Shown here in pieces: positions 15,828-61,194 of a stretch of DNA of 64,000 bases. The notes beneath the pieces are model-generated. The model had not been told where the DNA came from. It saw only the letters and a list, made by a program, of their open reading frames with translations, and searched no databases. Source of the stretch: Actinomycetales bacterium. GTDB lineage: Bacteria; Actinomycetota; Actinomycetes; S36-B12; UBA5976. Made by a program: the position numbers and the translations under genes. Position 1 is the stretch's first letter. Each line of letters opens with the position of its first letter. The stretch is from contig JAGWXT010000005.1 of assembly GCA_018969715.1 (NCBI GenBank), positions 13,263 through 77,262 on the forward strand, read 5' to 3'.

Positions 15828-17060
15828 CTACTGCAGGATCTGGTTGAGCACCTTGCGGGCCTCAGCCACATTGGCCGAGGTCACGGGCACCAGTTTCTGC
15901 GTGTTGGGCATGACCAGACCGTGCTTGAGGTACATCGCGCACGCGAGCGCACCGTACCCAGCCTGCTGGGACCATGCCTGATCGAGTGCCGCGACCTGGA
16001 TGCCGTCATCAATGCCCTGGAATTGCCCCTCACTGGTGTTCCAACCGATGGTGAAGACCTTGCCAGTGCGCTTCGAATCGGCAATGGCGCGGTTGGCGTG
16101 CTCAGCCCCGATATCGACGTTCTCAATGAACTGCACCTGCGGGTTTCCGGTGAGGAACGCCTTGTAGGCGTCGTAGGTCTTAGCCGGATCGTACGACGTC
16201 ACCAGCGCATCGGAGGGCCCGTTGACGAAGGTAGCGCCCGGAATCAACTCCGTGATCCCGGCGATGAAGCCCTTCATGCGGCCCTGGGCCCATGATGCCG
16301 AGGGGTCACCGCCAGACACAGCGAAGACCTTGAGGTCCTTCCCGTTCTCCGTCGCCCAGTTCGCCACGATCTCGGCCGCCTGGCGGCCCTCCGCCTCGGA
16401 CACCTGCGTGAAGTTGGCGAACTCGTTTGCAGCCGAGGTCACGCCCACGGTGAACACGGGGATTCCCTTGGCCATGACCTTGTTCGTGATGTCGGTGAAG
16501 CTGACGTCATCGAGTGGCTGGATGGCTAGGCAATCAAGAGAGCCGGTGTTCAACTGCGCCTCGATGCCGGCAATCTGGGCCGCCACGTCCTGCCCCGGGG
16601 TGGACGGTGAGACATCGGCGCCCTTCATCGGCAGGATGGACGTCGCCACTGGCAGGGTGTCGTTGTAGCCGATCAGGTACTGCTGCGAGAAGAGCGGAAT
16701 GCTCTTGGATCCGTAGGAGATGACGTAGTTGACCTCCTCCCCGGCGGCGATCTTGGCCGCGATGTCCGGGTTGAGGGTGAAGGTGCTGCCGTCCGCCAAT
16801 GCCCCGGGTGCGGCAGCGGCAGCCAGAAGTGACTCGGCGAGCTGGCTGTAGCCAAGCTGCTCGAGCTCGGCCGCCTGGGCGGCGACGTCGGGGGCGGCGG
16901 CCGTTTCGGCCGGTGCCGCCTCCTCTGCAGGGGCTTCCGCGGCGGCCGTTTCGGCCGGTGCCGCCTCCTCAACGGTCGTCGATCCAGCCGAGCATGCGGC
17001 CAGCAGTGCTGCAGCGCCGACGACGGCAATGGCCGTCACAAGGCTCTTGGTTCTCATCAT
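15828..17060 (-). CDS. sugar ABC transporter substrate-binding lipoprotein
   Basis: Lipobox MMRTKSLVTAIAVVGAAALLAAC|SAG, then the repeated linker EEAAPAETAAAEAPAEEAAPAETAAAPD, then a PBP type I body. Confidence 0.8.
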   Translation of the reverse strand: MMRTKSLVTAIAVVGAAALLAACSAGSTTVEEAAPAETAAAEAPAEEAAPAETAAAPDVAAQAAELEQLGYSQLAESLLAAAAAPGALADGSTFTLNPDIAAKIAAGEEVNYVISYGSKSIPLFSQQYLIGYNDTLPVATSILPMKGADVSPSTPGQDVAAQIAGIEAQLNTGSLDCLAIQPLDDVSFTDITNKVMAKGIPVFTVGVTSAANEFANFTQVSEAEGRQAAEIVANWATENGKDLKVFAVSGGDPSASWAQGRMKGFIAGITELIPGATFVNGPSDALVTSYDPAKTYDAYKAFLTGNPQVQFIENVDIGAEHANRAIADSKRTGKVFTIGWNTSEGQFQGIDDGIQVAALDQAWSQQAGYGALACAMYLKHGLVMPNTQKLVPVTSANVAEARKVLNQILQ

Positions 17061-24435: not shown

Positions 24436-25934
24436 GCCCGTTGGTGCTGGTCGGTGCGTTCTCGATCGAGGGCGACAGTTTCGTCCCCGGGGAGACCACC
24501 CTCACTGACTTCCAACGGCAGGTATGGGCAACCGGTGATGAGGTGACCCGCGACTGCTGTGGCAGCGACAGTGAGCTGGCGGGCGCCTGGGATGTGCTGG
24601 TGGCGGCCGGCATCACCCCCATCGGCTCGGTCGCGGCGCGCTCATCACCGGGACCACGGGTTGCGAGGGCGGTATTCGAGCAGGTCTGCCAGGGCATCCT
24701 GAGCAGATGCACCGCAGGCGTCGACGGTGTGTACCTCATGCTGCACGGTTCAGCTCTCGTCATCGGGGAGGACGACCCGGAGGGCTGGCTGCTGACTGAG
24801 ATCCGCGCGCGCGTCGGACCCACGGTGCCGATTGCCATCAGTCTCGACCTGCACGCTTACCTGACTGAGCGGATGCTGGCCAGCGTCGACATCGTCACCG
24901 TGTACCGCACCTGCCCGCATATCGACCTGTATCGCACGGGTGAGCAGGCCGGCAGGCTGCTCACCCGAACCCTGCTCGGCCAGATCAGCCCGGTCTGCCG
25001 CCGGGTCCGGCTGCCGATGATCACGCCACCGGAGCGGCATGACTCCGCCCAGGACCCGTTCGCGCGGCTGCAGGCCGCCTGCACCCAGGCGGAGCAGGAC
25101 GGGGCACTTGCCGCCGGGCTGCTCTCCACACAACCCTGGCTCGACGTCCCCGAGCTCGGGTGGTCCGCAGTGGTCACCACCGATGACGATCCCCTGGCAG
25201 CCGAGGCGGCCGCTGAGCGAATTGCCGACCAGGCTTGGCAGGTGCGCGAGGAATTCCTCCACACGACGGCAATTGGGTGTGAGCAGGCCGTGACCGAGGC
25301 CCTTGCGCAACCCGGAGTGTGCACCATCGCCGACCTTGGTGATGCCACCAATGGCGGCTCCTATGGCGACAGCACCGAGCTGCTGCGCGTGCTGCTGGAC
25401 CGCCAGACCAGCGGCCAGCCCGCGGGCCCGGCGGCGCTCTCGGTGACCGACCCGGTGGCCGCTGCGGCGGCATGGCGCGCCGGTGTCGGGTCGAGGGTCA
25501 CCCTCACCGTCGGGACCGGTGCCGCCGGTGCGTTCAACGAGGCTGTCACCGTCAGCGCCGCTGTTGACCGGCTCTGGCGGGGGGAGATCCGCTACACCCA
25601 CCCGGCCGCCTACGGGCTGCTGGACGACCCCGGGGACACTGCGGTGCTCACCGTGGGCGAGGTGACGGTGATCGTGCACAGCCGGCCAGTGCGGGTCATC
25701 GACCCTGCCATCTATCGCGCCGTCGGTGTCGACCTCGCCGGACTGAGGATCGTGCAGGCGAAGTCCCACGTGTCATTCCGGGCCGGCTTCGAGCCGGTCA
25801 CCGACCTCAGCATCCTCGCGGACACCCGGGGGCCGACGGCGGCGAACCTCACCACGCTGCCCTATGCCAATCGGCCCCGTCCACTGTTCCCGTTCGAGGA
25901 TGCGAAGTGGCCACCCGCGGCCAAGAACCGCTAG
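24429..25934 (+). CDS. M81 (MlrC-like, DUF1485 + MlrC C-terminal) family protein
   Basis: Track ORF 24342-25934 trimmed to GTG 24429/24432, overlapping the SDR stop. Strings MLHGSALV..DPEG, ISLDLHAY and YRTCPHID match the MlrC-family pattern from memory. Confidence 0.65.
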   Translation: MVSPLVLVGAFSIEGDSFVPGETTLTDFQRQVWATGDEVTRDCCGSDSELAGAWDVLVAAGITPIGSVAARSSPGPRVARAVFEQVCQGILSRCTAGVDGVYLMLHGSALVIGEDDPEGWLLTEIRARVGPTVPIAISLDLHAYLTERMLASVDIVTVYRTCPHIDLYRTGEQAGRLLTRTLLGQISPVCRRVRLPMITPPERHDSAQDPFARLQAACTQAEQDGALAAGLLSTQPWLDVPELGWSAVVTTDDDPLAAEAAAERIADQAWQVREEFLHTTAIGCEQAVTEALAQPGVCTIADLGDATNGGSYGDSTELLRVLLDRQTSGQPAGPAALSVTDPVAAAAAWRAGVGSRVTLTVGTGAAGAFNEAVTVSAAVDRLWRGEIRYTHPAAYGLLDDPGDTAVLTVGEVTVIVHSRPVRVIDPAIYRAVGVDLAGLRIVQAKSHVSFRAGFEPVTDLSILADTRGPTAANLTTLPYANRPRPLFPFEDAKWPPAAKNR

Positions 25935-26245
25935 TCGAGGTGCCAGACCTCGTCCATGACCATGAGGTTGCCACGACCGTCAGTGAGATTGACGATGGTG
26001 TCCTTGAACCACTCCGCCCACCGCGCATTGTGCTCGGATTGGCCGACCTTGCCGAAGGCGGTCGCCATATCAGGGTGGCACTCAACGTATCCGACGACCT
26101 GGGTGCCGCGACGGAACAGTGAGTAGTTCTTCAACCCCGCCTGCTGGATGACCTCGACCAGCTCCGGCCAGATCTCATCGTGGCGTCGCTTGTACTCATC
26201 CTGCTGGCCCTCGTAGACCTCGAACGTGAAGCAGACCCGCTCCAT
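25931..26245 (-). CDS. rhaM: L-rhamnose mutarotase family protein
   Basis: 104 aa: MERVCFTFEVYEGQQDEYKRRHDEIWPELVEVIQQAGLKNYSLF... The size and the Y-x-RRH-x-IWPE string are characteristic of RhaM/RhaU (PF05336). Confidence 0.8.
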   Translation of the reverse strand: MERVCFTFEVYEGQQDEYKRRHDEIWPELVEVIQQAGLKNYSLFRRGTQVVGYVECHPDMATAFGKVGQSEHNARWAEWFKDTIVNLTDGRGNLMVMDEVWHLD

Positions 26246-26318
26246 GGCGCCTCCTTGGCTGAGATGGCATGTTCCGGTGCGACTGCGCGGCAGCGTACTT
26301 GACCGGTCGTGTGCGCGT

Positions 26319-26404
26319 CGGGGGTCATGAGCCGGGGGTCATAAGCCGGGGTCACAAGCCCGGGTCACAAGCCCGGGTCACAAGCCCGGGTCACAATTCG
26401 ATAA
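26319..26404. repeat. 6-copy 13-bp tandem array GGGTCAYRAGCCS ending in the 18-nt box GGGTCACAATTCGATAAC
   Basis: GTCA cores at 26323, 26337, 26350, 26363, 26376 and 26389, giving periods of 14, 13, 13, 13, 13. Located in the rhaM / ABC divergent intergenic region. Confidence 0.9.
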
Positions 26405-26437
26405 CAGCGAGAGCGAGGGCCGGCGCTGGGCTTGACA

Positions 26438-26450
26438 GCATGTCTGACAT
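26438..26450. promoter_or_regulatory. 13-bp palindrome CATGTC-T-GACATG next to a TTGACA hexamer
   Basis: Perfect 6-bp arms. TTGACA at 26431-26436 immediately precedes it. Lies 60 nt upstream of ATG 26511. The function (operator overlapping a promoter) is inferred only. Confidence 0.3.
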
Positions 26451-26510
26451 GTTGTTGCCTATGCTCCAAGGCCGCTTGGCCTGTGGGATCGTGAGGCGTC
26501 GGAGGTACCC

Positions 26511-27995
26511 ATGGCGGTAGTGGAGTGCCGGCAGGTCTCCAAGTGGTATGGCACCGCCAAGGTCCTCGACGACGTCGACTTCACCGCCAATGAGGCCGAA
26601 ATCCACGTCATCCTTGGTGAGAACGGTGCCGGCAAGAGCACCTTGGTGAAGGTCATCGCCGGCCTGGTGTCCCCTGATCGCGGCCAGGTCCTGCTGCGGG
26701 GCGCTGCCCTGAAGGCGGGTTCCGTGGCCGCGGCGCAGGCACAGGGGGTTGCCCTGATCCATCAGGAACCGCGGCTCTTCCCGGATCTGTCGGTGATGGA
26801 GAACATCTGGATCGATCAGGGCTCAGGGTGGTGGTCACGCCGGCGCTTCCGGCTCTCTCGGATGGCCGGCCGGACTCGGGAATTGCTGGGCCGGCTGGGC
26901 AGTTCGGTGTCGCCGGATGCGCGGGTGGCGTTCCTGTCGGTTGCTGATCAGCAGATGATCGATATTGCCGCCGCACTCCGCAAGGACCTGAAGGTCCTGA
27001 TCGTGGATGAGCCGACCGCGTCGCTTACCCCCGCGGAGGTCGGCAACCTCTTTCGGGTCATGCGGGAACTTCGCGATCAGGGTGTGGCAGTGATCTTCAT
27101 CGGGCACCGACTTGAGGAGATCCTCGAGATCAGCGATCGCATCACGGTGCTGCGCGATGGTCGGCTGGTGCGGACACTCAGCCGAGATGAGGCGAATGAG
27201 GATGAACTCATTCGGTTGATGATCGGACGTGATATCGAGGCGGTTGCACATGCCCCCACAGCGGCCGTCGGTGAGGTGCTGCTCTCAGTCCGGGACCTCT
27301 CCGCCGCCGGGCACTTCTCCGATGTCTCCCTGGACGTCCGACGAGGTGAGATCGTCGGTATCGGCGGCCTGGTCGGCTCCGGCCGGAGCGAGGTCCTGGA
27401 GGCCATCTTCGGCGTTCGTCCGCGATCCACTGGGGTGGTGTCGGTGGGTGGGCGATCGATCGGCTCGCTGGCACAGGCCGTTGCCAGTGGGATGGGGTTG
27501 GTGCCGGAGGATCGCGGTCGCTATGGCCTTGTCCTGCTGTCCAGTGTGTTGAACAACGTCTCAGCACCCAACCTTGATCTCACGTCCCGCCTGGGAATTC
27601 GACGTCCCCGCCGGGAGCAGCGCAATGCGCAGGACATCGTGGCCCGGCTGCGTATCCGGGTGTCGAGTCTCGCGCAGCTGGCTGGGCAGCTCAGCGGGGG
27701 AAACCAGCAGCGGGTGAGCCTCGGTAAGTGGTTGGTGCGCGACCTCGACATCCTCCTTGTGGACGAGCCGACCCGCGGCGTGGACATCGGATCCAAGCGC
27801 GAGATCCATGGCCTGCTGCGTCAGTTCGCGGACTCCGGTAAGGCGGTGCTGCTGGTCAGCAGTGACATGCGGGAACTGCTTGAAGTGCCAGATCGCATCC
27901 TGGTGATGCGCGAGGGGCGCATCACGGGCGGGCTGTCCATCGATGAGGCCGATGAGGAGTCAGTCATGCGCCTGGCGGCGGGGATCGCGGCATGA
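26511..27995 (+). CDS. sugar (rhamnose-type) ABC transporter ATP-binding protein, fused double NBD
   Basis: Walker A GENGAGKST and signature LSGGNQQRVSLG. 494 aa. Confidence 0.9.
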   Translation: MAVVECRQVSKWYGTAKVLDDVDFTANEAEIHVILGENGAGKSTLVKVIAGLVSPDRGQVLLRGAALKAGSVAAAQAQGVALIHQEPRLFPDLSVMENIWIDQGSGWWSRRRFRLSRMAGRTRELLGRLGSSVSPDARVAFLSVADQQMIDIAAALRKDLKVLIVDEPTASLTPAEVGNLFRVMRELRDQGVAVIFIGHRLEEILEISDRITVLRDGRLVRTLSRDEANEDELIRLMIGRDIEAVAHAPTAAVGEVLLSVRDLSAAGHFSDVSLDVRRGEIVGIGGLVGSGRSEVLEAIFGVRPRSTGVVSVGGRSIGSLAQAVASGMGLVPEDRGRYGLVLLSSVLNNVSAPNLDLTSRLGIRRPRREQRNAQDIVARLRIRVSSLAQLAGQLSGGNQQRVSLGKWLVRDLDILLVDEPTRGVDIGSKREIHGLLRQFADSGKAVLLVSSDMRELLEVPDRILVMREGRITGGLSIDEADEESVMRLAAGIAA

Positions 27996-29005
27996 GCACT
28001 GGGCGCCCTGGTGTGTCGTGGGGGGTGCTGATCCGCGTCCGGGAGGCAGGCATTGCAGCGGTCATCGTCGCGCTGATCGCTGTATTCGGGCTGCTCAACC
28101 CGCGATTCCTCAACGCCGAGAACCTCGGGGCGATCGTGCTGAGCGTCGGCATCCTGATGATCCTCGCCATCGGCCAGATGCTCGTCATCGTCACCCGCAA
28201 CATCGACCTCTCAGTCGGCAGCGTGCTCGGCCTGTCGGCGATGGTCATGGGCATGGTCGGCCGCGACCTGCCGCAGGTGCCGATTCCCCTGCTCATCCTC
28301 ATTGCCATGGCCGTCGGTGCGCTGGCGGGTGCCCTGAACGGGGTGCTCGTTGCGGTGGCGCAGGTGCCGGCGATCATTGCCACCCTCGGCACACTGGCGA
28401 TCTTCCGCGGGTTGACCTTCCTCGTCTCAAACAACGTTCAGGTCGATCCTGAGGACATCGATGACCGAGTTCAGGATCTCGCGGCCGAGGGGCCACTCGG
28501 TATCCCCTGGCTGGTCATCTTCGCCATCATCGTCGTCGCAGTGGCGTGGTGGTTCACCACGAGGACCATGACCGGAAAGCGCCTCTACGCCATCGGCAGC
28601 AACCCCGAGGCGGCACGCATGAGGGGACTCAACGTCCGCGGCTTGACCTTCTTGGTCTTCGTCACGATGGGTGCCCTCGCTGGCCTCGGTGGTGCGATGT
28701 ATGTCGCGCGGTTCGCGACCGTCAATCCGGCCGATGCTGGGCTTGGCTTCGAACTCGCGGTGATCAGTGCGGTCGTCATCGGCGGCACCAATATCTTCGG
28801 CGGATCGGGCACCGTCCTCGGCACCGTCCTCGGCACCGTGCTGGTGGGCATCCTCGCCAATGGGCTGACCGTGGTGGGGGTCAGCGGCTTCTGGCAGCGC
28901 TTTGCCTCCGGCGCCATCATCCTGCTGGCCATCGTTGCCGACGCTTTCGTGCGACGACGCATTGAGGCGCGACAATCACAGGAGACGACGGTGAGAAGTA
29001 CATGA
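27992..29005 (+). CDS. sugar ABC transporter permease 1
   Basis: ATGA overlap with the ATPase gene. Multi-TM. GGTNIFGGSGTVLGT string. Confidence 0.85.
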   Translation: MSTGRPGVSWGVLIRVREAGIAAVIVALIAVFGLLNPRFLNAENLGAIVLSVGILMILAIGQMLVIVTRNIDLSVGSVLGLSAMVMGMVGRDLPQVPIPLLILIAMAVGALAGALNGVLVAVAQVPAIIATLGTLAIFRGLTFLVSNNVQVDPEDIDDRVQDLAAEGPLGIPWLVIFAIIVVAVAWWFTTRTMTGKRLYAIGSNPEAARMRGLNVRGLTFLVFVTMGALAGLGGAMYVARFATVNPADAGLGFELAVISAVVIGGTNIFGGSGTVLGTVLGTVLVGILANGLTVVGVSGFWQRFASGAIILLAIVADAFVRRRIEARQSQETTVRST

Positions 29006-30024
29006 GCCACACTCATGCCGCTGCGGGAGACCTGGTCGAGGTAGGTGGGCTACCGTGGCGGGCTCGGATCGGCCCCTACCTGCCGTCACTGGTCGTTCTC
29101 GTCGCCGCAGTTGTCTACGGCTCGGTCTCCTCGCCGTACTTCCTCAACTTCAGCGCGCTGCTGGTGAACACGGGCCGGTATGTGGAGATCGGGCTGCTCG
29201 CGCTGGCGCTGACGGTGGTCATCATCAATGGCGATATCGATCTTTCCGTTGCCAGCAACCTTGCGGTCAGTGCCGCGACGATGGGTCTACTCGTCGAATC
29301 GGGAGTCGGCATCGAGGTGGCGGCCTTCGCCGCCCTGGCCGTCGGACTGGGGTTGGGGGCGATCAATGCGCTGTTCATCGTCGGGCTGGGGTTGCCGAGC
29401 CTGGTGGTAACACTGGCCACGCTGGCGCTGTACCGCGGCCTTGCCCAGATCCTGCTGGGGGATCGAGCCGTCACCGGATACCCGGAGGCCTTCATCGGCG
29501 TCGATCAGATTTCACTGCTCGGCGACTGGGCGCGTGTCCCGCTGCCACTGGTGCTCTTCCTGGTCGTGGCCCTGCTGTTCAGCGTGCTGTTGACGCGCAC
29601 CAACTTCGGCCTTGCGTGCTATCTCACGGGCAGCAACCAGCAGGCAGCTCGCTTCAGCGGTATCAAAACCGATCACACGCGGGCGGTGGCGTTCATGCTC
29701 TGCGGGCTGATGGCCGGCGCGGCAGCCATCATGCTCACCTCTCGGCTGGGCTCAACGCTGTCGAATGTCGGACTGGGTCTGGAGTTGCTCGCCATCACGG
29801 TGGTCGTCCTCGGCGGCACCGACATCTTCGGCGGGCGCGGCACGATCATCGGCACCGTCATCGCCCTGTTCGCGGTGATGGCGGTACGCGAGTCGCTGGT
29901 CATCTCGAACGTGAACGGGCAGGTACAGGACGCCGTCGTCGGCGTGATCCTGATTCTGGCGATCATCGTTCCGCTCACCGTGGCACATCTGCGAGAACGC
30001 AGCAGTCAGCGAAGACTCCGGTGA
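29002..30024 (+). CDS. sugar ABC transporter permease 2
   Basis: ATGA overlap. Multi-TM. GGTDIFGGRGTIIGT string. The two-permease layout matches RhaP/RhaQ-type systems. Confidence 0.85.
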   Translation: MSHTHAAAGDLVEVGGLPWRARIGPYLPSLVVLVAAVVYGSVSSPYFLNFSALLVNTGRYVEIGLLALALTVVIINGDIDLSVASNLAVSAATMGLLVESGVGIEVAAFAALAVGLGLGAINALFIVGLGLPSLVVTLATLALYRGLAQILLGDRAVTGYPEAFIGVDQISLLGDWARVPLPLVLFLVVALLFSVLLTRTNFGLACYLTGSNQQAARFSGIKTDHTRAVAFMLCGLMAGAAAIMLTSRLGSTLSNVGLGLELLAITVVVLGGTDIFGGRGTIIGTVIALFAVMAVRESLVISNVNGQVQDAVVGVILILAIIVPLTVAHLRERSSQRRLR

Positions 30025-30084
30025 CACCACCGGCAGTTCAGAATCGCACGCGACGGTCGCGGCGATGAACGAAAGGAAACAGCA

Positions 30085-31161
30085 ATGAGGAGAGTGCGCA
30101 GGTCTGCCGTCCTTGTCGCAACTGCGGCATCGATGGCTGTCGTTCTCGCCGCCTGCGGTGGGACGAGTACAAGTGACGAGGCGCCAGCCGAGGCTCCCGC
30201 AGAGGAGGCGCCAGCCGAGGCTCCCGCAGCCGGGGGTGAGGCGCTTCGGGTGACGTACATCCCGAAGAATCTCGGTAACCCCTACTTCGACGCAATCGTC
30301 AAGGGGTTCCAGGAGGCGGCACCGGGCCTGAACATGACCGTCGAGGTGGTTGCCCCAGCGCAGGCGGGTGCAACGGATCAGATCCCCTTCATTGATGCAG
30401 CGATCCAGCAGCAGGTTGATGCGATCGCGATCTCCCCGAATGACGCCGATGCGCTCTGCCCATCGCTCAAGCGGGCGGCCGATGCTGGGATCATCGTGAT
30501 CACGGTCAATGGCGACACCGCAGCGGACTGCCGTCAGGCATCGATCACCCCGGTTGACTTCAGCCAGCTGGGCAAGTACCTCGTCGACCTCACCGCACAG
30601 GTGACCGGTGGTAAGGGTGAGTGGGCATTCCTCTCGGCCACATCGACCGCTCCGGACCAGAACTCCTGGCTGGCCGGCGCCGATGAGTACATCGCTTCCG
30701 GTCAGTCACCTGCGGGTCTGACGCTGGTTGACACTGTCTACGGCGACGACGCTCCGGACAAGAGCGCCACCGAGGCGCAGGCTCTGCTGACGAAGTACCC
30801 GAATCTCGCCGCCATCAACGCCCCGACCACGGTCGGTATCGCCGCGGCGGCCCAGGTGCTGTCACAGTCACCGAAGAAGGGTCAGGTGCAGGTGACCGGC
30901 CTGGGTACTCCGAACCAGATGCGGGAGTTCATCAAGGACGGCACCGTTCAAAAGTTCGCACTGTGGGACCCTGCCCTGCAGGGCACGATCGCAGCGAACC
31001 TGATCGCCGGGATCAAGGCCGGGACCATTGCTCCGGCTGCCGATCTCGAATTCGAGGTGCCGGGCGTCGGTCAGCGCGTGATGGCGGGCGCCGACCGGGT
31101 CATCATCGCTGGGCCGCCGCAGGAGTTCGACGCGTCGAATATCGACAACTTCGACTTCTAG
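30085..31161 (+). CDS. sugar ABC transporter substrate-binding lipoprotein (RhaS/LsrB-like)
   Basis: Lipobox VVLAAC|GG, linker DEAPAEAPAEEAPAEAPAAGGE, then YIPKNLGNPYFDA, which is typical of rhamnose/AI-2-type PBPs (from memory). Confidence 0.8.
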   Translation: MRRVRRSAVLVATAASMAVVLAACGGTSTSDEAPAEAPAEEAPAEAPAAGGEALRVTYIPKNLGNPYFDAIVKGFQEAAPGLNMTVEVVAPAQAGATDQIPFIDAAIQQQVDAIAISPNDADALCPSLKRAADAGIIVITVNGDTAADCRQASITPVDFSQLGKYLVDLTAQVTGGKGEWAFLSATSTAPDQNSWLAGADEYIASGQSPAGLTLVDTVYGDDAPDKSATEAQALLTKYPNLAAINAPTTVGIAAAAQVLSQSPKKGQVQVTGLGTPNQMREFIKDGTVQKFALWDPALQGTIAANLIAGIKAGTIAPAADLEFEVPGVGQRVMAGADRVIIAGPPQEFDASNIDNFDF

Positions 31162-34004: not shown

Positions 34005-34362
34005 TTGCTTGGTGGTGCGGGAGAGTGTGTCATAGGGGAACCGCAGGGGGTCGAGCAGTGTGTGTTGATGGATGTTGAGCCGGGTTTTGGGGGTTTGGTG
34101 CGGGCGAGGCGGACGGTGGAGAAGACGTTTCGCCGGTATGACCAGGACCAGCCGATGCTGCTGGCGCCGGATCTGCGGGATTGGCTGCCGGGGGATCATC
34201 CTGCGCGGTGGGTCGATGACCTGGTTTGGGCATGGATTGGACTTGACGGCGTTCTTCGATGATGACACGGTGGCTCGTGGGGCTCCGCCGTATGGCCCGA
34301 GGCTGATGGTGAAGTTGCTGATCTACGGGCTGTGGGTTTCGGCAGTAGTGTTGGCACAGTGA
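34005..34362 (+). pseudogene. IS1182/IS5-type transposase N-terminal remnant (frameshifted, truncated)
   Basis: Two frames read FRRYDQDQPMLLAPDLRDWLPGDHPARWVDDLV and then LDLTAFFDD..ARGAPPYGPRLMVKLLIYGL. This is the DUF772-type N-terminus of IS1182-like transposases. Only ~95 aa remain, with no catalytic DDE region. Confidence 0.6.
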
Positions 34363-37969: not shown

Positions 37970-38005
37970 GGGATGGGACCGCCGAGCGGGATGGGACCGC
38001 CGAGC
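37970..38005. repeat. 2 x 18-bp perfect direct repeat GGGATGGGACCGCCGAGC
   Basis: Copies at 37970-37987 and 37988-38005, immediately upstream of the RBS and start of enolase gene 38023. Confidence 0.9.
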
Positions 38006-39144: not shown

Positions 39145-39300
39145 CCCGCAGGGACATCTGATGCACAGCACACCCGCCATCACCAGAGTCAGCACCGCCG
39201 GCGTCAGCTCCGCCGCACTCGGCGCCATGAGAATGCACGCCACCACCAGGGTGGACACCATCCGGGTGGACACCACCACCGCAAGGGAGAAGGTGATCCG

Positions 39301-41604: not shown

Positions 41605-41688
41605 CCACGGCGACTGACGACGGCCCGCGACGTGCCCGGCCTCGACGGTGCGTACACCGGTGAGACCGGGTCCCGGTCCTTTGACCCA

Positions 41689-43746
41689 ATGACGGTTGAC
41701 CCCGATCCCTGGCCGGCCATCCCGCCTGACTGGTCGCCACTGATCGGGGTCGATCCGCCGGGTCATTGGGAGGTTCCGATCGCCGCGGGACCGGTCAGCC
41801 TCATCGCACGTGATGGTGATCTCTATCAGGTGACCATCGATGGGACCTGCTGGGCGCAGCGGATCTATGTAGGCGTCCGCGACCTGTCCTGGCACACCCT
41901 CACCTGTCGGACCAGTGTCATCAGCACGCAGCGCGAAGGCGATGTGGTACGGCTGTGGTACACCCTGCATGCCGCAAGTGCCCAGCCGGCGGCGGACGAT
42001 CTCGACGTCCTCATCGACCTGATGGTGACGGCGGGGGTGACACCCGAGGGTGCGGGGGTGACGGTGTCAGCGACGATCCGTCCGCAGGGGCAGTTCCGGG
42101 CCGGAAAGATCGGACTGTGCATCCTGCACGACACTCGGACGCATCTGGGAGCCGCGTACACCGCGGACGGTCCCGGCACTCACGTATCCGGCCAGTTCGC
42201 GGACCGCATCGACCCCCAGCTGTTCCGTGACGGCACGGTGACCGCGATGTTCGACCCCTATGACCGGCTTCGACTCCGGCTGCCCAGCGGTGCCGTCGGA
42301 GAGTGGACGTTCACGGGGGACACCTTCGAGATGCAGGACCACCGCAACTGGGCTGATCTATCGCTGAAGTCGTACAGCACTCCCCAGCGTCTGGGCTGGA
42401 GTCATCCATTCCATCCCGATCATCCGCAGCAGCAGACGGTGCACCTGCGGGCCGAGCGGAATCCGGTGGTCGGGTCTGACCCGGAAGACCCCGGATTGCC
42501 CGATCCCGGGCCGGCGGATGAGCGGGGCGTTCCGGTGACCCTGCGGGTGGGCGACCCCACCGCACCGCGGCTGCGGCTGGGCTGCAACCATCCACCCGGT
42601 TCCTCGCCGGTACCATCCGACCTGCTCGCCGTGCTGTCGCCGGACCACCTGCGGGTTGCGGTGACCGCCGCCGAGGCTGACTCCCTGGGGGCACGGTTCG
42701 ACGCCTGCGCTGGGACGGCGGTGGAACTGGTGCTGCTGCCCCACGACGCCGGGGAGGCGCGACAGCTGGTCACCGCCGTGGCCGATGCACTGCATGCCGG
42801 TTCGGTCGCCCTCACCTCGATCCAGCTCGGCGCCCTCGACGCCGGCGCTGAGCTGGAGGTTCCCGACCCCGAGCTGTTCGCCGCCGCCCGTGAGGTACTG
42901 GTGGCCTCCGGCCTGCCCGCCCCGGACCGCACCGGCACCACCTCGCACTTCTGCGCCCTCAACCGGGCGCCAACGGCGTGGCACCCGGGCACCGCCGCGG
43001 TCATCGGAGTGACCACGCAGTTGCACGTGGCCGACAGTGCCACCGTGATGCTCAACATCCTCAGCCTGGCCGATATTGCCGAGTCAATGCGCCAGCTGGT
43101 CGGCGCCGACACCCCGCGGCACGCCTCTCCGGTGAGCCTGATCGGGCGGGACGGACCCTGTCCCACCGGCCCGATCGGGCTGTGGGGGCAGCCCGCGTGG
43201 GTGGACCCCCGGCTGTTCGGCTGCTACGGGGCGGCGTGGCTGCTGGCGATGATCGCCGGTCTCAGTCGCAGTGGCTTCACCTCCGCCACCGTGCTCGACC
43301 TGGGTGGACCCCGCGGGGTCATCGTGACCGATCGTGCGGTCGTCGGGAGCATGCTGCCCGCGGATGCACGGGTGGTTCCCGCCTACCACGTCCTCGCTGA
43401 TGTCCTCGCGGCGACTGCCCTTGAGCCGGTGGCGGTGAGCCTGCCCGAGCGGCTGGCCGCTGTGGCGCTGCGCGGACCCACTGCCACGCCGATGCTCGCC
43501 TGTGCCAACCTCGGGTCGGCGGAACTGACAGTCGATCTCGATGGCTTGGGTGATCGGGTGCGGGTGCGGGTGCTCGACGCGACCACGGCAAGTGAGGCGA
43601 TCACCGACCCCCTCGGCTTTCGGGGTGAGGCAGGCTGGCGGCTCATCGGCACCCAGCTGACACTCGGCGCCTACGCCACGGCTCTGTGCCAAGCCGAGCC
43701 GGCTGCGCCAGCGCCGCGCACGACCACCGCTGATGACTACCGCTGA
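41689..43746 (+). CDS. uncharacterized ~686-aa protein (paralog of 11373-13163)
   Basis: Track ORF 41632-43746 (GTG). ATG 41689 is also possible. Colinear with the 596-aa protein: RIYVGVRDLSWHT, QLFRDGTVTAM, GDTFEMQDHRNWAD, VDPRLFGCYGAAW. It has extra N-terminal residues and a Pro/Asp-rich insert. Confidence 0.7.
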   Translation: MTVDPDPWPAIPPDWSPLIGVDPPGHWEVPIAAGPVSLIARDGDLYQVTIDGTCWAQRIYVGVRDLSWHTLTCRTSVISTQREGDVVRLWYTLHAASAQPAADDLDVLIDLMVTAGVTPEGAGVTVSATIRPQGQFRAGKIGLCILHDTRTHLGAAYTADGPGTHVSGQFADRIDPQLFRDGTVTAMFDPYDRLRLRLPSGAVGEWTFTGDTFEMQDHRNWADLSLKSYSTPQRLGWSHPFHPDHPQQQTVHLRAERNPVVGSDPEDPGLPDPGPADERGVPVTLRVGDPTAPRLRLGCNHPPGSSPVPSDLLAVLSPDHLRVAVTAAEADSLGARFDACAGTAVELVLLPHDAGEARQLVTAVADALHAGSVALTSIQLGALDAGAELEVPDPELFAAAREVLVASGLPAPDRTGTTSHFCALNRAPTAWHPGTAAVIGVTTQLHVADSATVMLNILSLADIAESMRQLVGADTPRHASPVSLIGRDGPCPTGPIGLWGQPAWVDPRLFGCYGAAWLLAMIAGLSRSGFTSATVLDLGGPRGVIVTDRAVVGSMLPADARVVPAYHVLADVLAATALEPVAVSLPERLAAVALRGPTATPMLACANLGSAELTVDLDGLGDRVRVRVLDATTASEAITDPLGFRGEAGWRLIGTQLTLGAYATALCQAEPAAPAPRTTTADDYR

Positions 43747-43764
43747 TGACCACCGCTGATGAAT
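43726..43764. repeat. 3 x 13-bp tandem repeat ACCGCTGATGAMY spanning a stop / start junction
   Basis: Copies at 43726-43738, 43739-51 and 43752-64. Contains the TGA stop of the 704-aa ORF (43744-46). Places TGATGA in all three frames. Confidence 0.9.
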
Positions 43765-44646: not shown

Positions 44647-44664
44647 GGGTCACAATTCGATAAC
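44647..44664. promoter_or_regulatory. second copy of the 18-nt box GGGTCACAATTCGATAAC
   Basis: Exact 18/18 match to 26387-26404. Both lie in intergenic DNA 106-134 nt upstream of the first gene of an ABC-transporter operon. AT-rich relative to its surroundings. Confidence 0.5.
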
Positions 44665-44698: not shown

Positions 44699-44714
44699 GC
44701 GGTAACGTTTCCCG
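44699..44714. promoter_or_regulatory. candidate LacI-type operator, site 3 (GCGGTAACGTTTCCCG)
   Basis: The core GGTAACGTTTCC has 5 of 6 palindromic arm pairs around the central CG. Lies ~87 nt upstream of permease start 44799. Confidence 0.4.
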
Positions 44715-44798
44715 AACCTGTGCTGACAGACGACAGCCAGTGCCGCCGCAGGCGGCGGGAGCATGCGTGAACGAGGCCAGCCGAGGACGGGAGTCGAG

Positions 44799-45803
44799 AT
44801 GAGCACCAGCAAGGCAGCTTCGCGCCGCATCCGGATGCCCGATGAACTCGGTGTCTTCATCGCGCTGCTCGTGCTCATCGGGATCATCGGTGCGCTGCAG
44901 CCGAAGTTCCTCAACATCAACACCTTCCTCAATGTGATGGCGAATAACTCCATCCTTGGGATGCTTGCCCTGGGCACGGTCTTCCTACTCGCCATGCGCG
45001 AGATCGACCTCTCCTTCGGGATGATCCTCAACCTCTCCGGCGTGCTCGCGGGGCTCAGCATGATTGCGGGGGTGCCAGTTGAACTGGGCATCCTGATCGC
45101 GCTCGTGGCGGGTCTGACGATGGGCACCCTCAATGGCTATCTGAGTGTGCAGTTTCGGCTTCCGCTCATCATCATCACGCTCGGCACGGCGTCGATCTAT
45201 CAGGGCACCTCGTTGATCGTCAACAACAAGGGTTCGGTCCTGCCGCCGCCGGAGGTGAAGGCGCACTGGTTCTTCCAGTTCATGGGAGGGCTGACCGACT
45301 TCCCGGTGCCGCCGATCGTCATCGTCTTCCTCGTGCTCGCGGTGGTGCTGCACTTCGTCCTCCACCGCTCGCGGTTCGGCTACCGGATCCTCGCCATCGG
45401 CAGCAACCCCGACTCTGCCCGTCTCGCGGGGATCAATGTCGATGGCTCACGCATCCAGGTCGCCGCGCTGATGGGCGTGATTGCAGGATTCGGGGGTGCC
45501 ATGTTCCTCGGATTCCGTGGCGCTATCGACCCGACCACCGGGTACCAGTTACTGCTGCCGGTGATCGCGGCAGCGATCATCGGTGGCACCCCCCTCTCGG
45601 GGGGTTCCGGCACCATCATCGGTGCTGTCCTCGGAACGCTGGTCGTCGGCGTCATCGCAACCGGTGTCGTCTTCCTCGGCATCGATGCCACCTGGAGCAC
45701 CTTCGTCACCGGCGTTGTCATCGTCGTGGCGGTCGGCATCGATCAGCTGGTGCGAGTCCAGCGCCGCAACCGGGCGGCTGTGGCGTCGGCCGGTGGCCAG
45801 TAG
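44799..45803 (+). CDS. sugar ABC transporter permease (RbsC-like)
   Basis: Trimmed to ATG 44799 (ACGGGAG RBS). Multi-TM. GGTPLSGGSGTIIGA string. Confidence 0.85.
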   Translation: MSTSKAASRRIRMPDELGVFIALLVLIGIIGALQPKFLNINTFLNVMANNSILGMLALGTVFLLAMREIDLSFGMILNLSGVLAGLSMIAGVPVELGILIALVAGLTMGTLNGYLSVQFRLPLIIITLGTASIYQGTSLIVNNKGSVLPPPEVKAHWFFQFMGGLTDFPVPPIVIVFLVLAVVLHFVLHRSRFGYRILAIGSNPDSARLAGINVDGSRIQVAALMGVIAGFGGAMFLGFRGAIDPTTGYQLLLPVIAAAIIGGTPLSGGSGTIIGAVLGTLVVGVIATGVVFLGIDATWSTFVTGVVIVVAVGIDQLVRVQRRNRAAVASAGGQ

Positions 45804-45915: not shown

Positions 45916-47070
45916 GTGCGCAAGCGCGTAGGAATCGCCGCCGTTGCGGCGGCGTTTGCGGTGACCGCAGCAGCATGTGGTGGCACCGCCGACACGGCAA
46001 CTGAGGCACCTGCCGAAGAGACACCGGCCGAGGCACCCGCCGAGGAGGCACCCGCTGAGGCACCCGCCGACGACATCGAGATCGGTTTCGTCACCCACGT
46101 CGTGGGCAACCCGTTCATCCAGCAGATCATCGACGCCGCACTGCAGGCGGGCGAGGACCTTGGAGTCACGGTCACTGTTGCCGGGCCGACCGGTGGCGAG
46201 GCGGATGCCCAGCTCGCCGCAGTGGAGAACCTCGTCGCCGCGGGCGTCGATGGGATCGCGACCTCGGTGCCGTCCAGCTCCATGGACAATGCCCTCAACG
46301 CCATCATCGACAGCGGTATCCCGGTGGCGACCTTCAACCTGCTCTCGCCGGCCGTGAATGCGCCCTACGTTGGGGAGAAGTCGGTTGAGTCCGGCCGCAT
46401 CCTCGGTGCGCGCATCGTCGAGCTGCTCGGTGGTGAGCAGCAGGCCAAGGGCACGGTCGTCGTCGGCATCTGCTTCCCCGGGTTCCCCGTTCTGGAGAAC
46501 CGGGCGAAGGGTGTTCAGGAGGCGCTGGCCAAGGCACCCGGAATCAAGGTGGAGGGCCCCTTCGACGTCAAGGTTGACGCCGCGGAGAACTACTCCAAGT
46601 GGGAGGGCCTCTACCAGGCTAACCCGGACGTTGCCGCACTCGTTGGACTGTGCGCACCGGACGTGGAGAGCCTCGGCCAGCTGAAGGCCAAGAACCCCAA
46701 GGCGAAGTTCATCGCTGGGGGCTACGACCTCACCCCGGGCAACGTTGCGGCGATCGCCAACGACACCGCTCAGGTGAGCCTCGGCCAGACGCCGTTCATG
46801 CAGGGCTACCTGCCGGTGTACATGCTGGTGCAGGCGATCCGGGACGGCGTGAAGCTGGAGCCCGGCTTCGTCGACGCCGGCACTGAGATCGCAACCTCCA
46901 ATCCGCTGCAGGTGATCCAGCCATATGGGCTGCCGCAGCTGACCTTCGACGAGCTGGCGGTCATCGCTGGCGACCCGAAGAAGTCCCGCGAGTTCTACCA
47001 GCCGCTGGTTGACGGCATCATCAAGAACTGGCAGGCAGAGGTGCAGCCGATCGCGAACGAGTCCTCCTGA
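45916..47070 (+). CDS. sugar ABC transporter substrate-binding lipoprotein
   Basis: GTG start with an AAGGAGGA RBS. Lipobox AVTAAAC|GG, linker TEAPAEETPAEAPAEEAPAEAPADD, then a PBP type I body. Confidence 0.8.
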   Translation: MRKRVGIAAVAAAFAVTAAACGGTADTATEAPAEETPAEAPAEEAPAEAPADDIEIGFVTHVVGNPFIQQIIDAALQAGEDLGVTVTVAGPTGGEADAQLAAVENLVAAGVDGIATSVPSSSMDNALNAIIDSGIPVATFNLLSPAVNAPYVGEKSVESGRILGARIVELLGGEQQAKGTVVVGICFPGFPVLENRAKGVQEALAKAPGIKVEGPFDVKVDAAENYSKWEGLYQANPDVAALVGLCAPDVESLGQLKAKNPKAKFIAGGYDLTPGNVAAIANDTAQVSLGQTPFMQGYLPVYMLVQAIRDGVKLEPGFVDAGTEIATSNPLQVIQPYGLPQLTFDELAVIAGDPKKSREFYQPLVDGIIKNWQAEVQPIANESS

Positions 47071-47095: not shown

Positions 47096-47222
47096 GCTGT
47101 GTGGGGGACCCGCGAATGCGGGCCCCCCACACAGCCTGGATCAAGTGTCGGGGGACCCGCGAATGCGGGCCCCCACACAGCCTGGAACAGGTGTCGGGGG
47201 ACCCGCGAATGCGGGCCCCCTA
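47096..47222 (+). repeat. ~2.7 tandem copies (46-47 bp) of a REP-like GC hairpin element between the SBP and ATPase genes
   Basis: Copy 1 (47096-47135) is GCTGTGTGGGGGACCCGC-gaat-GCGGGCCCCCCACACAGC, an 18-bp stem with 1 mismatch. The core GGGGGACCCGCGAATGCGGGCCCCC recurs at 47103, 47150 and 47196. Confidence 0.85.
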
Positions 47223-48850: not shown

Positions 48851-49177
48851 ATGATCCGCCGCGCCTTCACCATGCGCCTCAAGCCCGGTGGCTTGGCCGA
48901 GTACCGGCGCCACCACGACGAGATCTGGGCCGAGCTCGTCGCCGAGATCGAGCAGCAGGGGATCGCCCAGATCACCATCTTCGAGAACGACCCCGTCCTC
49001 GTGCTCTACTCGGAGATCCGCGATCCGGATGCCTGGGATCGCCTCTGGCACTCAGCGGTCCACGACCGTTGGTCGGAGCTGATGAACCCACTCATGGAGT
49101 TCAACAGCGACGGCATCGTCGACTCCTCGGAGTTGCGCGAGGTATTCCACTTGGAGACCTCGCCCACCGGATCATGA
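48851..49177 (+). CDS. L-rhamnose-mutarotase family protein (second copy)
   Basis: Trimmed to ATG 48851 (GAAGGGAG RBS). 108 aa: MIRRAFTMRLKPGGLAEYRRHHDEIWAELVAEIEQQG, same family pattern as 25931-26245. Confidence 0.75.
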   Translation: MIRRAFTMRLKPGGLAEYRRHHDEIWAELVAEIEQQGIAQITIFENDPVLVLYSEIRDPDAWDRLWHSAVHDRWSELMNPLMEFNSDGIVDSSELREVFHLETSPTGS

Positions 49178-59392: not shown

Positions 59393-60490
59393 TCACGCCG
59401 GGGCGGCGGGGGTTCCGGGGTGGCTGGCGGTGTAGAGCGTGTCGCGCTCCGTCTCGATGAACCCCACTCGCCGATAAAGCCGGATGGCCGCGGTGTTGGC
59501 CTGGTCGACGTAGAGCAGTGCCGCGGTCATGCCCCGGTTGCGCAGATACTGCAGTCCCCGCATGACCAGCGTGGTGCCCAGTCCGCTGCCGCGGGCGGCA
59601 GCATCGATGGCGAGCACGTACACCTCCCCCACCGGATCGGCGCTGGGGTGGTCGTGGTTGGCGCTGGGGTGGTCGTGGTTGGCGTTGGGGTGGTCGTGGT
59701 CGGCGCTGGGGTGGTCGCGGTCACGCGGCGACCGGTCATGGTGACGGTGCCCATGGCCATCCCCCTGGGCATGAACTTTCGTCCAGTGGAATCCCAGCAG
59801 ATGGTCGGGATCATCGGCGGCTACCGCCAACAGGAATCCCTCAGGATCGAACCAGTCCTGTGCCATCCGCAGACGGAGATCAGCCGGACCCCAGCCACCC
59901 TGATCGGGCAAGTCCGCGAAGGCCTGGGCGTTCAGTGCGAGCACCCGCTCCTCATCGCGGCCGGGTTGGAAGGCGCGAATGTGCACATCGGGCAGGGGAT
60001 CGGTCGTCCTGCCCGCGGGCAGGTCGATCAGTGATCGGCGCATCACCAACAGCACCCGCAGCGGCCGGAACCCGCAGGCATCGGCCAGCCGGGCCGCTGC
60101 CGGCAGGTCACCGTGTGCCCACAGTCGCAGGGGCAGCGGGGCATTCCGCTGCTGCAGGTGGGCGATGACCGCCCGCCCGATGCCGGCGCCGCGGGCGACT
60201 GGATCGACCACGCACTCGGCTGCCGGGCCGTCGGCTGCATCGCACTGGGCGTATCCCACGATCACCCCAGCGCGGCGCACGAGGGTGTGGGTGATGCCCG
60301 CGGTCGCTCCGCCGCGAAGGTGCAGGCGCACATGCTCGCAGAGCGGATCCACCCCATCGGCTGCCGCAGCACGTCCCACGATGGCGAGCACGGCAGCGAC
60401 CTCAGTGTCGGTCAGCGCTGGGGAATCGTCCACGGTCAGCCCACGGGCGGGGTCATCGAGCGCTCCCGGTGCCGGCAGCGGCCGGCTCAT
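59393..60490 (-). CDS. mshD: mycothiol synthase (double-GNAT) carrying a His-rich repeat insertion
   Basis: [36 protein letters not shown] and RLYRRVGF motifs. 365 aa because of an internal repeat (see 59639-59722). Confidence 0.85.
59639..59722. repeat. 4 x 21-bp in-frame tandem repeat inside mshD
   Basis: GGCGCTGGGGTGGTCGTGGTT-like units at 59639, 59660, 59681 and 59702. On the coding strand they encode [21 protein letters not shown] heptads. Confidence 0.9.
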
Positions 60491-61194
60491 GACGGCTCTT
60501 CCGTCCCAGTTGCGCTGAGGTCCTGCTGGAACCGGTAGCCGACATTGCGCACCGTGCCGATCAGCGCCTCATGCTCGGTGCCGAGCTTCGCCCGCAGCCG
60601 CCGCACATGCACGTCCACCGTGCGCGTCCCGCCGAAGTAGTCGAAGCCCCACACCTCCTGCAGCAACTGGGCTCGGGTGAAGACGCGACTGGGATGGTGG
60701 GCGAGGAAGCGCAGCAGCTCGAACTCCTTGTACGTCAGGTCGAGCAACTGGCCGCTGAGCCGGACGGTGTAGGCCGCCTCGTCGATGATCAGCTCACCCC
60801 GGCGGATCAGCTCATCTTCGGGTGTGACCCGCTGCCGACTGCGACCGATCACCAGGCGCAGCCGAGCGTCCACTTCCGCGGGTCCCGCCGTGGGCAGGAT
60901 GACGTCGTCGACACCCCAGTCGGCCGAGACCGCGACCAGTCCACCCTCGGCGAGCACCAGCACCACCGGCAGCAGCAGGCCGGTTGCCCGGATCAGCCGA
61001 CAAATCGCCCGGGCACCAGTGAGGTCGCGCTGGGCGTCGACGAGGACGGCATCACCGGTACTTGGCAGGTTGAGCAGGGCGGCAGGCTCCGCGGGAATCG
61101 CCACGATGGTGTGGCCCAGTAAGCCCAAGGCGGGCAGTGGTTCGGTGTCGGCGCCCGGGGGGCCAAGCAGAATGAGGTGATACACCGTTCCCAC
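60487..61194 (-). CDS. OmpR/PhoB-type winged-helix regulator with a degenerate receiver domain (GlnR-like orphan)
   Basis: The C-terminus [51 protein letters not shown]...TVRNVGYRF is canonical. The N-terminal domain lacks the acidic DD pair and the conserved Lys context. Adjacent to mshD, as GlnR is in mycobacteria (from memory). Confidence 0.7.

Follow-up and report, generated by a model that had tools for sequence, protein, structure and literature searches.

The tandem array that lies between a rhaM-family gene and a divergently transcribed sugar ABC operon of an uncultured actinobacterium is, very probably, a tandem duplication with a VNTR-like origin, and the part of this region that matters is most likely not the array but a conserved box into which its last unit merges. 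On balance, we favor the account in which the array is a lineage-specific, variable tandem duplication of the left half of this box, with the box itself serving as an activator site. Taken alone, the array is of minor significance: it is a variable promoter-region repeat, the chief use of which is to mark strains and to flag a point at which assemblies break. The 17-bp box, GGTCACRATTYGRTAAC, is the more useful result, being common to two sugar ABC operons and providing a concrete, testable candidate activator site; its distance from a LacI-type operator, 53 nt, is fixed across species, in a lineage without genetics.

Genes and promoter elements around the array

The array resides in a 265-bp intergenic gap (26246-26510; positions are those of the window, the whole 64-kb stretch of DNA that was analysed) between genes that were assigned in the earlier note from the sequence and that are confirmed by Pfam. 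On the minus strand, the gap is bordered by rhaM, a gene of the L-rhamnose mutarotase family (25931..26245; PF05336, E = 3.9e-22), and on the plus strand, divergently, by a sugar ABC operon (26511..31161) that encodes an ATPase (26511-27995), two permeases (27992-29005 and 29002-30024) and a binding protein (30085-31161). In their sources, the homologues of the ATPase are annotated as rhamnose or ribose transport ATPases, and the further neighbours include an M81 peptidase-like gene, SDRs, an amidohydrolase_2 and MR_MLE (mandelate-racemase-type) enzymes. These gene surroundings fit the catabolism of a deoxy-sugar or a sugar acid.

The presumed promoter of the ABC operon includes a -35-like hexamer, TTGACA (26432..26437, plus strand), which is identical in the closest relative, L095, and which is replaced by TGGACT or TGGACC in two of the three orthologous promoters found next to ATPases of 79-82% identity (L123/L124 and L125-L128). 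It is followed by a perfect palindrome, CATGTC-T-GACATG (CATGTCTGACATG), on the plus strand; the earlier note correctly recognized this element after TTGACA but placed it at 26438-26450, the proper coordinates being 26439..26451. The core of the palindrome, TGTCWGACA, is kept in L095 and in the loci with ATPase orthologues (L123-L128 and L146), so that it might be considered a candidate repressor operator. Further downstream, there is a -10-like hexamer of the TANNNT form, TATGCT (26460..26465, plus strand), with TATGCC or TATTCG following the palindrome in the orthologous promoters; its spacing from TTGACA is 22 nt, and its assignment as the -10 element is uncertain. The palindrome core and the TATGCY that follows it probably represent a local repressor operator and the -10 region, respectively. 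A scan of positions 25900-26600 with consensus promoters and terminators scored nothing.

Elsewhere in the window, promoters carry a different kind of operator. With up to 2 mismatches allowed, the LacI-type operator GGAAACGTTTCC occurs at six positions (632, 6076, 17102, 18814, 37913 and 44701), of which one falls just within an ORF and the other five in promoter regions between genes; at the same threshold, 26246-26510 contains none. Since the gap lacks the LacI-type motif, this ABC operon appears to be wired differently, as had been suggested on the same grounds; the other palindrome, with its core conserved in the orthologous promoters, is a candidate substitute for the LacI-type operator at the ABC promoter.

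Structure of the tandem array

Six head-to-tail units of 13-14 bp span positions 26320..26399 of the plus strand, with unit lengths of 14, 14, 13, 13, 13 and 13 bp. In order, the units read GGGGGTCATGAGCC (26320-26333), GGGGGTCATAAGCC (26334-26347), GGGGTCACAAGCC (26348-26360), CGGGTCACAAGCC (26361-26373), CGGGTCACAAGCC once more (26374-26386) and, as the last unit, CGGGTCACAATTC (26387-26399). The GTCA tetranucleotides start at 26324, 26338, 26351, 26364, 26377 and 26390, which gives the spacing of 14, 13, 13, 13 and 13 bp, and units 3-5 carry an identical 13-mer, GGGTCACAAGCCC (26349-26387). The head-to-tail periodicity of the array is far beyond chance: TRF reports a period of 13 with 4.7 copies, 95% matches and a score of 108, and an uninterrupted run of 35 self-matches at lag 13 makes a stretch of 48 bp (26349-26396) perfectly periodic. 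The six copies, the spacing of their GTCA cores and the identity of the three central units, as first described, are thus all present in the sequence; the statement that the array fills much of the gap was generous, as it covers 80 of the 265 bases (~30%).

The hexanucleotide GGGTCA is unchanged in all six units, and each of them repeats the junction AA|GCC. Units 1 and 2 read GTCAT, not GTCAC, and the unit sequences are graded: TG, TA, then CA in each of the three identical central units, and, finally, CA followed by TTCG. The last unit was originally regarded as a degenerate copy, which turned out to be wrong: it belongs to a conserved box of 18 bp that recurs exactly at 44647-44664. Thus, the polarity of the array appears to be the reverse of the one initially assumed, the conserved AT-rich end, GGGTCACAATTCGATAAC, being the ancestral site and the identical, GC-rich units having been copied recently. 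The array is non-coding and ends 32 nt upstream of TTGACA (26432).

The local GC content around the array is ~65%. As single-stranded DNA, the array folds modestly better than its shuffled versions (z = -2.5), through GGG/CCC pairing between the units; with a z of only -2.5, we did not accept it as a structured single-stranded element. The Rfam scan of positions 25900-26700 yielded no family match.

Copy number and distribution of the array

Four contigs span the array, with six units in the window itself and in contigs L001 and L002, and five units in contig L003, which also carries 2 SNPs. In addition, at least 19 short-read contigs from other samples, assembled with k=31 (7 + 4 + 8 Logan), end at 26378 or begin at 26367. 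These breaks are explained by the array itself, because three or more identical units give rise to repeated 31-mers: there are five repeated 31-mers in the six-unit allele and none in the five-unit allele, and repeated 41-mers or 55-mers are present in neither. The five-unit contig, which runs through the tract without a break, is therefore probably genuine, this allele being represented by a single short-read contig. The tract is, then, variable and prone to slippage, as had been surmised: both five and six copies are found among near-identical populations, and a relative with a 97% identical RhaM has a single copy.

This relative, L095, shares the downstream promoter block, GGGCTTGACAGCATGTCTGACATGTTGTTGCCT, but lacks the array and has only a single copy of GGTCACAA / GTGGTCACAATTCGGTAAC. 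The position of the array is occupied in L095 by ~55 nt of unrelated sequence, and a different tandem repeat, of 20 bp in two copies, is located closer to rhaM. We considered whether unit 1 of the array and the single box of L095 are equidistant from a conserved AGCGTAC block, but dropped this correspondence, as the global alignment prefers another one. In a sister lineage, the RhaM of which falls into the same 90% cluster, rhaM faces a creatininase gene and has a 12-bp repeat, CGCAACGGACGT, in three copies upstream. The gene opposite the ATPase orthologues (79-82% identity) encodes a 2-hydroxyacid dehydrogenase. The ATPase orthologues of L123-L128 and L146 are not preceded by the array, and neither is rhaM in L015-L039 and L131-L138.

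Exact matches to both RhaM and the ATPase come from metagenome assemblies and from an NCBI MAG (MBU6147428.1 and MBU6147429.1). In a scan of a genome collection with the RhaM alignment, the nearest species representatives were at most 73% identical; these are for the most part MAGs carrying the label Acidimicrobiia (one Ca. Poriferisocius and one Spongiisociaceae among them), along with Ca. Planktophila. Among these relatives, rhaM is never located beside this ABC operon, so that they provided no orthologous intergenic region, and in several of them rhaM is preceded by a LacI-type operator.

Small tandem duplications are common in the intergenic DNA of this clade. Within the window, other short intergenic arrays are found at 672-703, 37970-38005, 39241-39278 and 47099-47220, and in a sister species a 21-bp duplication that directly abuts the box discussed below is polymorphic, with two copies in L142 and one in L143-L145.

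A conserved box at two sugar ABC promoters

The left half of the box GGGTCACAATTCGATAAC (26388..26405, plus strand), which can be written as GTCAC-n6-ATAAC, is the last unit of the array. The second exact copy (44647..44664, plus strand) lies ~115 nt upstream of another sugar ABC operon (hereafter ABC2), whereas 0.03 matches would be expected by chance. The gene order in ABC2, namely, permease (44763-45803), binding protein (45916-47070) and ATPase (47260-48801), differs from that in the first operon, and these genes are followed by a second rhaM-family gene (48851-49177). Apart from the boxes, the flanks of the two sites cannot be aligned.

The box is conserved beyond the window, both in sequence and in position. 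In L095 it differs by one mismatch and reads GTCAC-AATTCG-GTAAC, and in the sister species (L142-L145) it reads GTCAC-GATTTG-GTAAC, compared to GTCAC-AATTCG-ATAAC in both window copies. At the ABC2 promoter of the sister species, where the permease is 88% identical, the box, GGTCACGATTTGGTAAC, matches at 14 of 17 positions and starts exactly 53 nt before a LacI-type operator, GGTACCGTTTCC; this is the same start-to-start spacing as in the window, where the operator GGTAACGTTTCC is found at 44701..44712 (plus strand). The DNA between the box and the operator is identical at 9 of 36 positions only. The resulting 17-bp consensus is GGTCAC-R-ATT-Y-G-R-TAAC, and a search for it as GGTCACNATTNGNTAAC with up to 2 mismatches in the 976 kb of fetched DNA gave nothing beyond the rha-ABC and ABC2 promoters. 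At the orthologous promoters with 79-82% ATPase identity, there is only a weaker element, ATYAC-n6-nGCAT, located 21 nt closer to the operator.

The conservation of the box together with its fixed position suggests a real cis-element, and we consider it likely, judging from sequence comparison, that the box is functional. It would then occupy a constant distance upstream of the repressor operator and core promoter in two sugar ABC operons, each of which has a rhaM-family gene nearby, an arrangement in which the box would most likely bind an activator.

Candidate proteins that might bind the box

The form of the box, GTnAC-n6-(G/A)TnAC, is reminiscent of the sites bound by GlnR, MtrA and other regulators of the OmpR/PhoB type. 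The box fits the GTnAC-n6-GTnAC pattern, i.e., two pentamers separated by 6 nt (an 11-bp register) with A at position 4, albeit the window's own box has ATAAC, not GTAAC; GTAAC is found in two relatives (GTCAC-n6-GTAAC). Published GlnR boxes have been described as gTnAc-n6-GaAAc, GTnAC-n6-GTnAC and t/gTAAC-n6-Gc/aAAC, with A4 being essential; in this a-site-n6-b-site layout, successive sites are 11 bp apart (PMC10704036). The protomers of GlnR bind head to tail (PMC10235972). MtrA sites follow GtnAcC-n5-GTnAcn in Streptomyces and, in Mycobacterium, take the form of a direct repeat of GTCACAgcg (PMC13189361). The pentamer consensus used in our comparison was taken from PMC10704036, and a match to it carries little information. 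In favor of the lead, GTNAC-N6-NTNAC occurs 7 times in the window, the two boxes being the only intergenic occurrences.

The genomic setting is also compatible with GlnR. The boxes precede sugar ABC operons, and operons of this class are documented targets of GlnR, as 13 of 20 carbohydrate ABC transporters have GlnR-bound promoters (PMC10704036), and the window itself encodes one candidate binder, a GlnR-type orphan response regulator (60487..61194, minus strand; Pfam GlnR_1st 3.9e-38, Trans_reg_C 1.1e-27). There are also differences. The box has a single a-b pair, as opposed to the classic arrangement of two GlnR boxes; and, unlike the sites of the OmpR/PhoB family, the box is located upstream of the -35-like hexamer (by ~26 nt at the rha promoter and 15 nt at the ABC2 promoter of the sister species), without overlapping it. 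The pentamer GTnAC is, moreover, self-complementary, so that a palindrome-binding dimer would fit the box equally well, and a dimer of another family is an equally possible binder. Binding of the box by a regulator of the GlnR/MtrA type is possible but doubtful, and the motif resemblance may serve as a lead only. Should GlnR or MtrA bind the box, the link between nitrogen status and sugar uptake that is known in model actinomycetes would hold for this uncultured group as well.

Several other known sites were compared by eye and rejected: a CRP/GlxR site (TGTGA-n6-TCACA), the left halves of which misfit in every instance, and a lac-operator-like half-site, a DnaA box and a BldD box, all with misfits in spacing or sequence.

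Origin and possible roles of the array

The three identical central units, together with the graded outer ones, form the pattern of a recent expansion. The array probably arose by duplication and replication slippage of a 13-14 bp segment, GYC(C)GGGGTCAYRA, which comprises the upstream half of the 17-bp box with 4-5 flanking bases; only the last copy retains the intact box, the three identical units would be the youngest, and units 1 and 2, with their GTCAT, would have drifted. The extra units would provide additional half-sites and a ~66-bp spacer between the divergent promoters. Considering that the half-sites are out of register, are not conserved and vary in number, a VNTR that is neutral or, at most, weakly modulatory is the simplest reading. 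On this account, the locus shows how tandem duplication can multiply half of a candidate binding site, i.e., produce raw material for regulatory evolution.

The array resembles actinobacterial VNTR or minisatellite loci, for instance, mycobacterial MIRU-VNTR, in being intergenic, head-to-tail and strain-variable in copy number, in having identical, recent central units and older, diverged outer ones, in causing breaks in assemblies, and in showing no sequence conservation across species. It differs from them in that it is seeded on half of a candidate regulatory site and in the length of its unit, 13-14 bp, as compared to ~40-100 bp in MIRUs. This is probably an ordinary VNTR-like locus beside a plausible activator site. 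Two observations do not sit easily with this reading. Against neutrality of the array, GGGTCA is intact in all six units, which could also be produced by selection on the half-sites; against coincidence, two independent polymorphic duplications, the array in the window and the 21-bp one in L142, abut the same box. On a more far-reaching reading, the array would be a copy-number-tunable cluster of half-sites, a local antenna or sink for the OmpR-type activator of the box, that sets the response of the divergent promoters; the protein-bound box would then promote slippage nearby, which would explain the independent duplications by the same box in two lineages. We regard this elaboration as quite unlikely.

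A functional multi-site operator, akin to iterons, in which a regulator would sit on each 13-bp unit and the whole array would control both the rhaM and the ABC promoters, was one of the possibilities raised in the earlier note. The position of the array between two divergent promoters, the invariance of GGGTCA and the sharing of a half-site with the conserved box are in line with such an operator, as is a report of MtrA binding to single half-sites in vitro (PMC13189361). Nevertheless, we deem it unlikely: L095, the closest relative, lacks the array but keeps the promoter block, the orthologous ABC promoters (79-82% identity) have no array either, the copy number varies, units 1 and 2 have already drifted from GTCAC to GTCAT, and the half-site spacing of 14, 13, 13, 13 and 13 bp does not conform to the 11-bp head-to-tail register of the family with similar boxes, the a-site being repeated at 13-14 bp instead. 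The similarity to the iterons of plasmids and phages is limited to the presence of several short direct repeats in non-coding DNA. Iteron units are ~17-22 bp long, whereas those of the array are 13 bp; near the array there are neither genes for Rep or other initiators nor clustered DnaA boxes nor an AT-rich region for unwinding, the setting is one of chromosomal sugar catabolism, and the units are not conserved in relatives, with only the last of them belonging to a conserved element. The iteron-like interpretation is thus not supported. The other suggestion, a contingency tract in which gain or loss of 13 bp would switch rhaM or the transporter on and off in a phase-variable manner via the promoter geometry, is borne out insofar as the tract is slippage-prone: alleles with five and six copies exist, the perfectly periodic 48-bp stretch invites slippage, the single-stranded DNA folds slightly better than shuffled sequences, and the distance from the box to the rhaM side shifts by 13 bp per unit. 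The proposed change in promoter spacing is not supported at the ABC promoter, though, as the array is entirely upstream of TTGACA, rather than within the -35/-10 spacer, and the variation appears modest, with a single variant allele seen and at least 19 contigs breaking as predicted, which suggests one dominant allele; among these contigs there was no sign of frequent switching. Classical contingency repeats have units of 1-7 nt in many copies, so the long unit and the low copy number of the array also set it apart from the contingency loci of Haemophilus and Neisseria, with which it has in common a promoter-region repeat tract polymorphic in copy number. Given, in addition, that comparable small duplications are scattered in the neutral-looking intergenic DNA of this clade, phase variation is a very unlikely role for the array.

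The two remaining alternatives concern the nature of the repeat itself. An assembly artefact, whether in the array as such or in the number of its copies, is hardly credible. The short-read assemblies at k=31 do break at this site, and a loop-skipping de Bruijn path could collapse six copies to five; but two independent ENA assemblies agree with the window on six copies, assemblers using larger k can resolve the six-copy allele, as it is free of repeated 41-mers and 55-mers, and the contig ends read into the array from both sides with the expected sequence. It is also exceedingly improbable that the unit represents a repeat of the REP or MITE kind, generic, dispersed through the genome and unrelated to local regulation. 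A degenerate two-unit pattern did retrieve ~10 independent, similar arrays (e.g., GGGTCATGAGCCC and CAGGGTCACGAGCC) from other high-GC metagenome contigs, but these are unrelated contigs, where the arrays are found beside genes for FolD, TetR, HlyIII or an O-methyltransferase, and we estimate their number to be within chance plus the ascertainment by a tandem pattern. No further copy of GGGTCACAAGCCC, with up to 2 mismatches, is present in the 64-kb window, and the box consensus among the fetched loci is confined to the rha-ABC and ABC2 promoters. The pattern scan of metagenomes returned 24 loci, none of them this one, and it also missed a JGI contig, L010, that carries this locus and does match the pattern, so that the scan has no bearing on dispersal in this organism; its low-GC matches are 7-bp repeats (GTCACGA/GCCACGA), and the high-GC ones are independent arrays.

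Duplications adjoining the conserved box and the rhaM gene

Among loci of the sister species, the promoter of the second ABC operon differs in how often it carries the 21-bp segment CGGTGCCAGCCAGGAAGACCC: one sample (L142, 2294-2336) has two copies, and L143-L145 have one each. The duplication directly adjoins the left side of the conserved box, the candidate activator site, and is the second independent polymorphic duplication that touches this same box. The region upstream of rhaM also differs between close lineages, in this case by a small tandem repeat: L095, a close relative, carries TTGCTGCTGCGTGATTGACG in two copies (141-180), and the sister-lineage loci L131-L137 carry CGCAACGGACGT in three copies, one of them a variant (about 1340-1380).

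The second ABC operon

Directly 3' of the second ABC operon lies a second gene of the rhaM family (48851-49177; product MIRRAFTMRLKPGG...YRRHHDEIW), so that both operons equipped with the box have a mutarotase partner. In the gap that separates the binding-protein and ATPase genes of this operon, the 46-bp unit GTGTCGGGGGACCCGCGAATGCGGGCCCCCCACACAGCCTGGAACAA is repeated 2.6 times (47099-47220), an arrangement that resembles REP-like or intra-operon stem-loop elements. Every 46-bp unit of this array contains a strong GC hairpin.

LacI-type operators and other tandem repeats in the window

LacI-type operators, with up to 2 mismatches to GGAAACGTTTCC, are spread across the window at sugar-gene promoters, at six positions (632, 6076, 17102, 18814, 37913 and 44701). 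Together with a gene for a LacI-family regulator (50763-51857), these six sites suggest a single regulon that spans several ABC operons. The divergent control region between the CoA-transferase and MR_MLE genes harbors, 45 nt past the operator CTGAATCGTTTCCAGA (37913), a perfect two-copy duplication of the 18-bp sequence GGGATGGGACCGCCGAGC (37970-38005).

Another repeat with a 13-bp period, GACCACCGCTGAT (3.2 copies, 92% matches; 43722-43762), is located where the 41632-43746 open reading frame meets an SDR gene beginning at 43746. In-frame tandem repeats of 27 or 45 bp occur in the N-terminal regions of three sugar-binding-protein genes (16870-16968, 30178-30229 and 46003-46070), where they probably encode Ala/Pro/Glu-rich linkers past the lipoprotein signal. 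Two overlapping reading frames (..YDQDQPMLLAPDLRDWLPGDHPARWVDDLV.. and ..GPRLMVKLLIYGL..; about 34005-34362), situated between the sugar genes and the gene for a HAD hydrolase, look by eye as though they encode part of the N-terminus of a putative IS-family transposase, split by a frameshift.

Similar arrays in unrelated contigs

Tandem arrays of their own, with units of 13-16 bp and very similar cores, are present in unrelated high-GC metagenome contigs (L099, L104, L105/L108, L109, L111, L112, L117, L121 and L122, all from the scan with the degenerate two-unit pattern), a recurrence that may be due to chance. The units of these arrays include GGGTCATGAGCCC, GGTCATGAGCCGC (four copies), CAGGGTCACGAGCC (four copies) and GGGTCATAAGCCYTG (three copies), and the adjoining genes, such as those for FolD, TetR, HlyIII and an O-methyltransferase, are unrelated.
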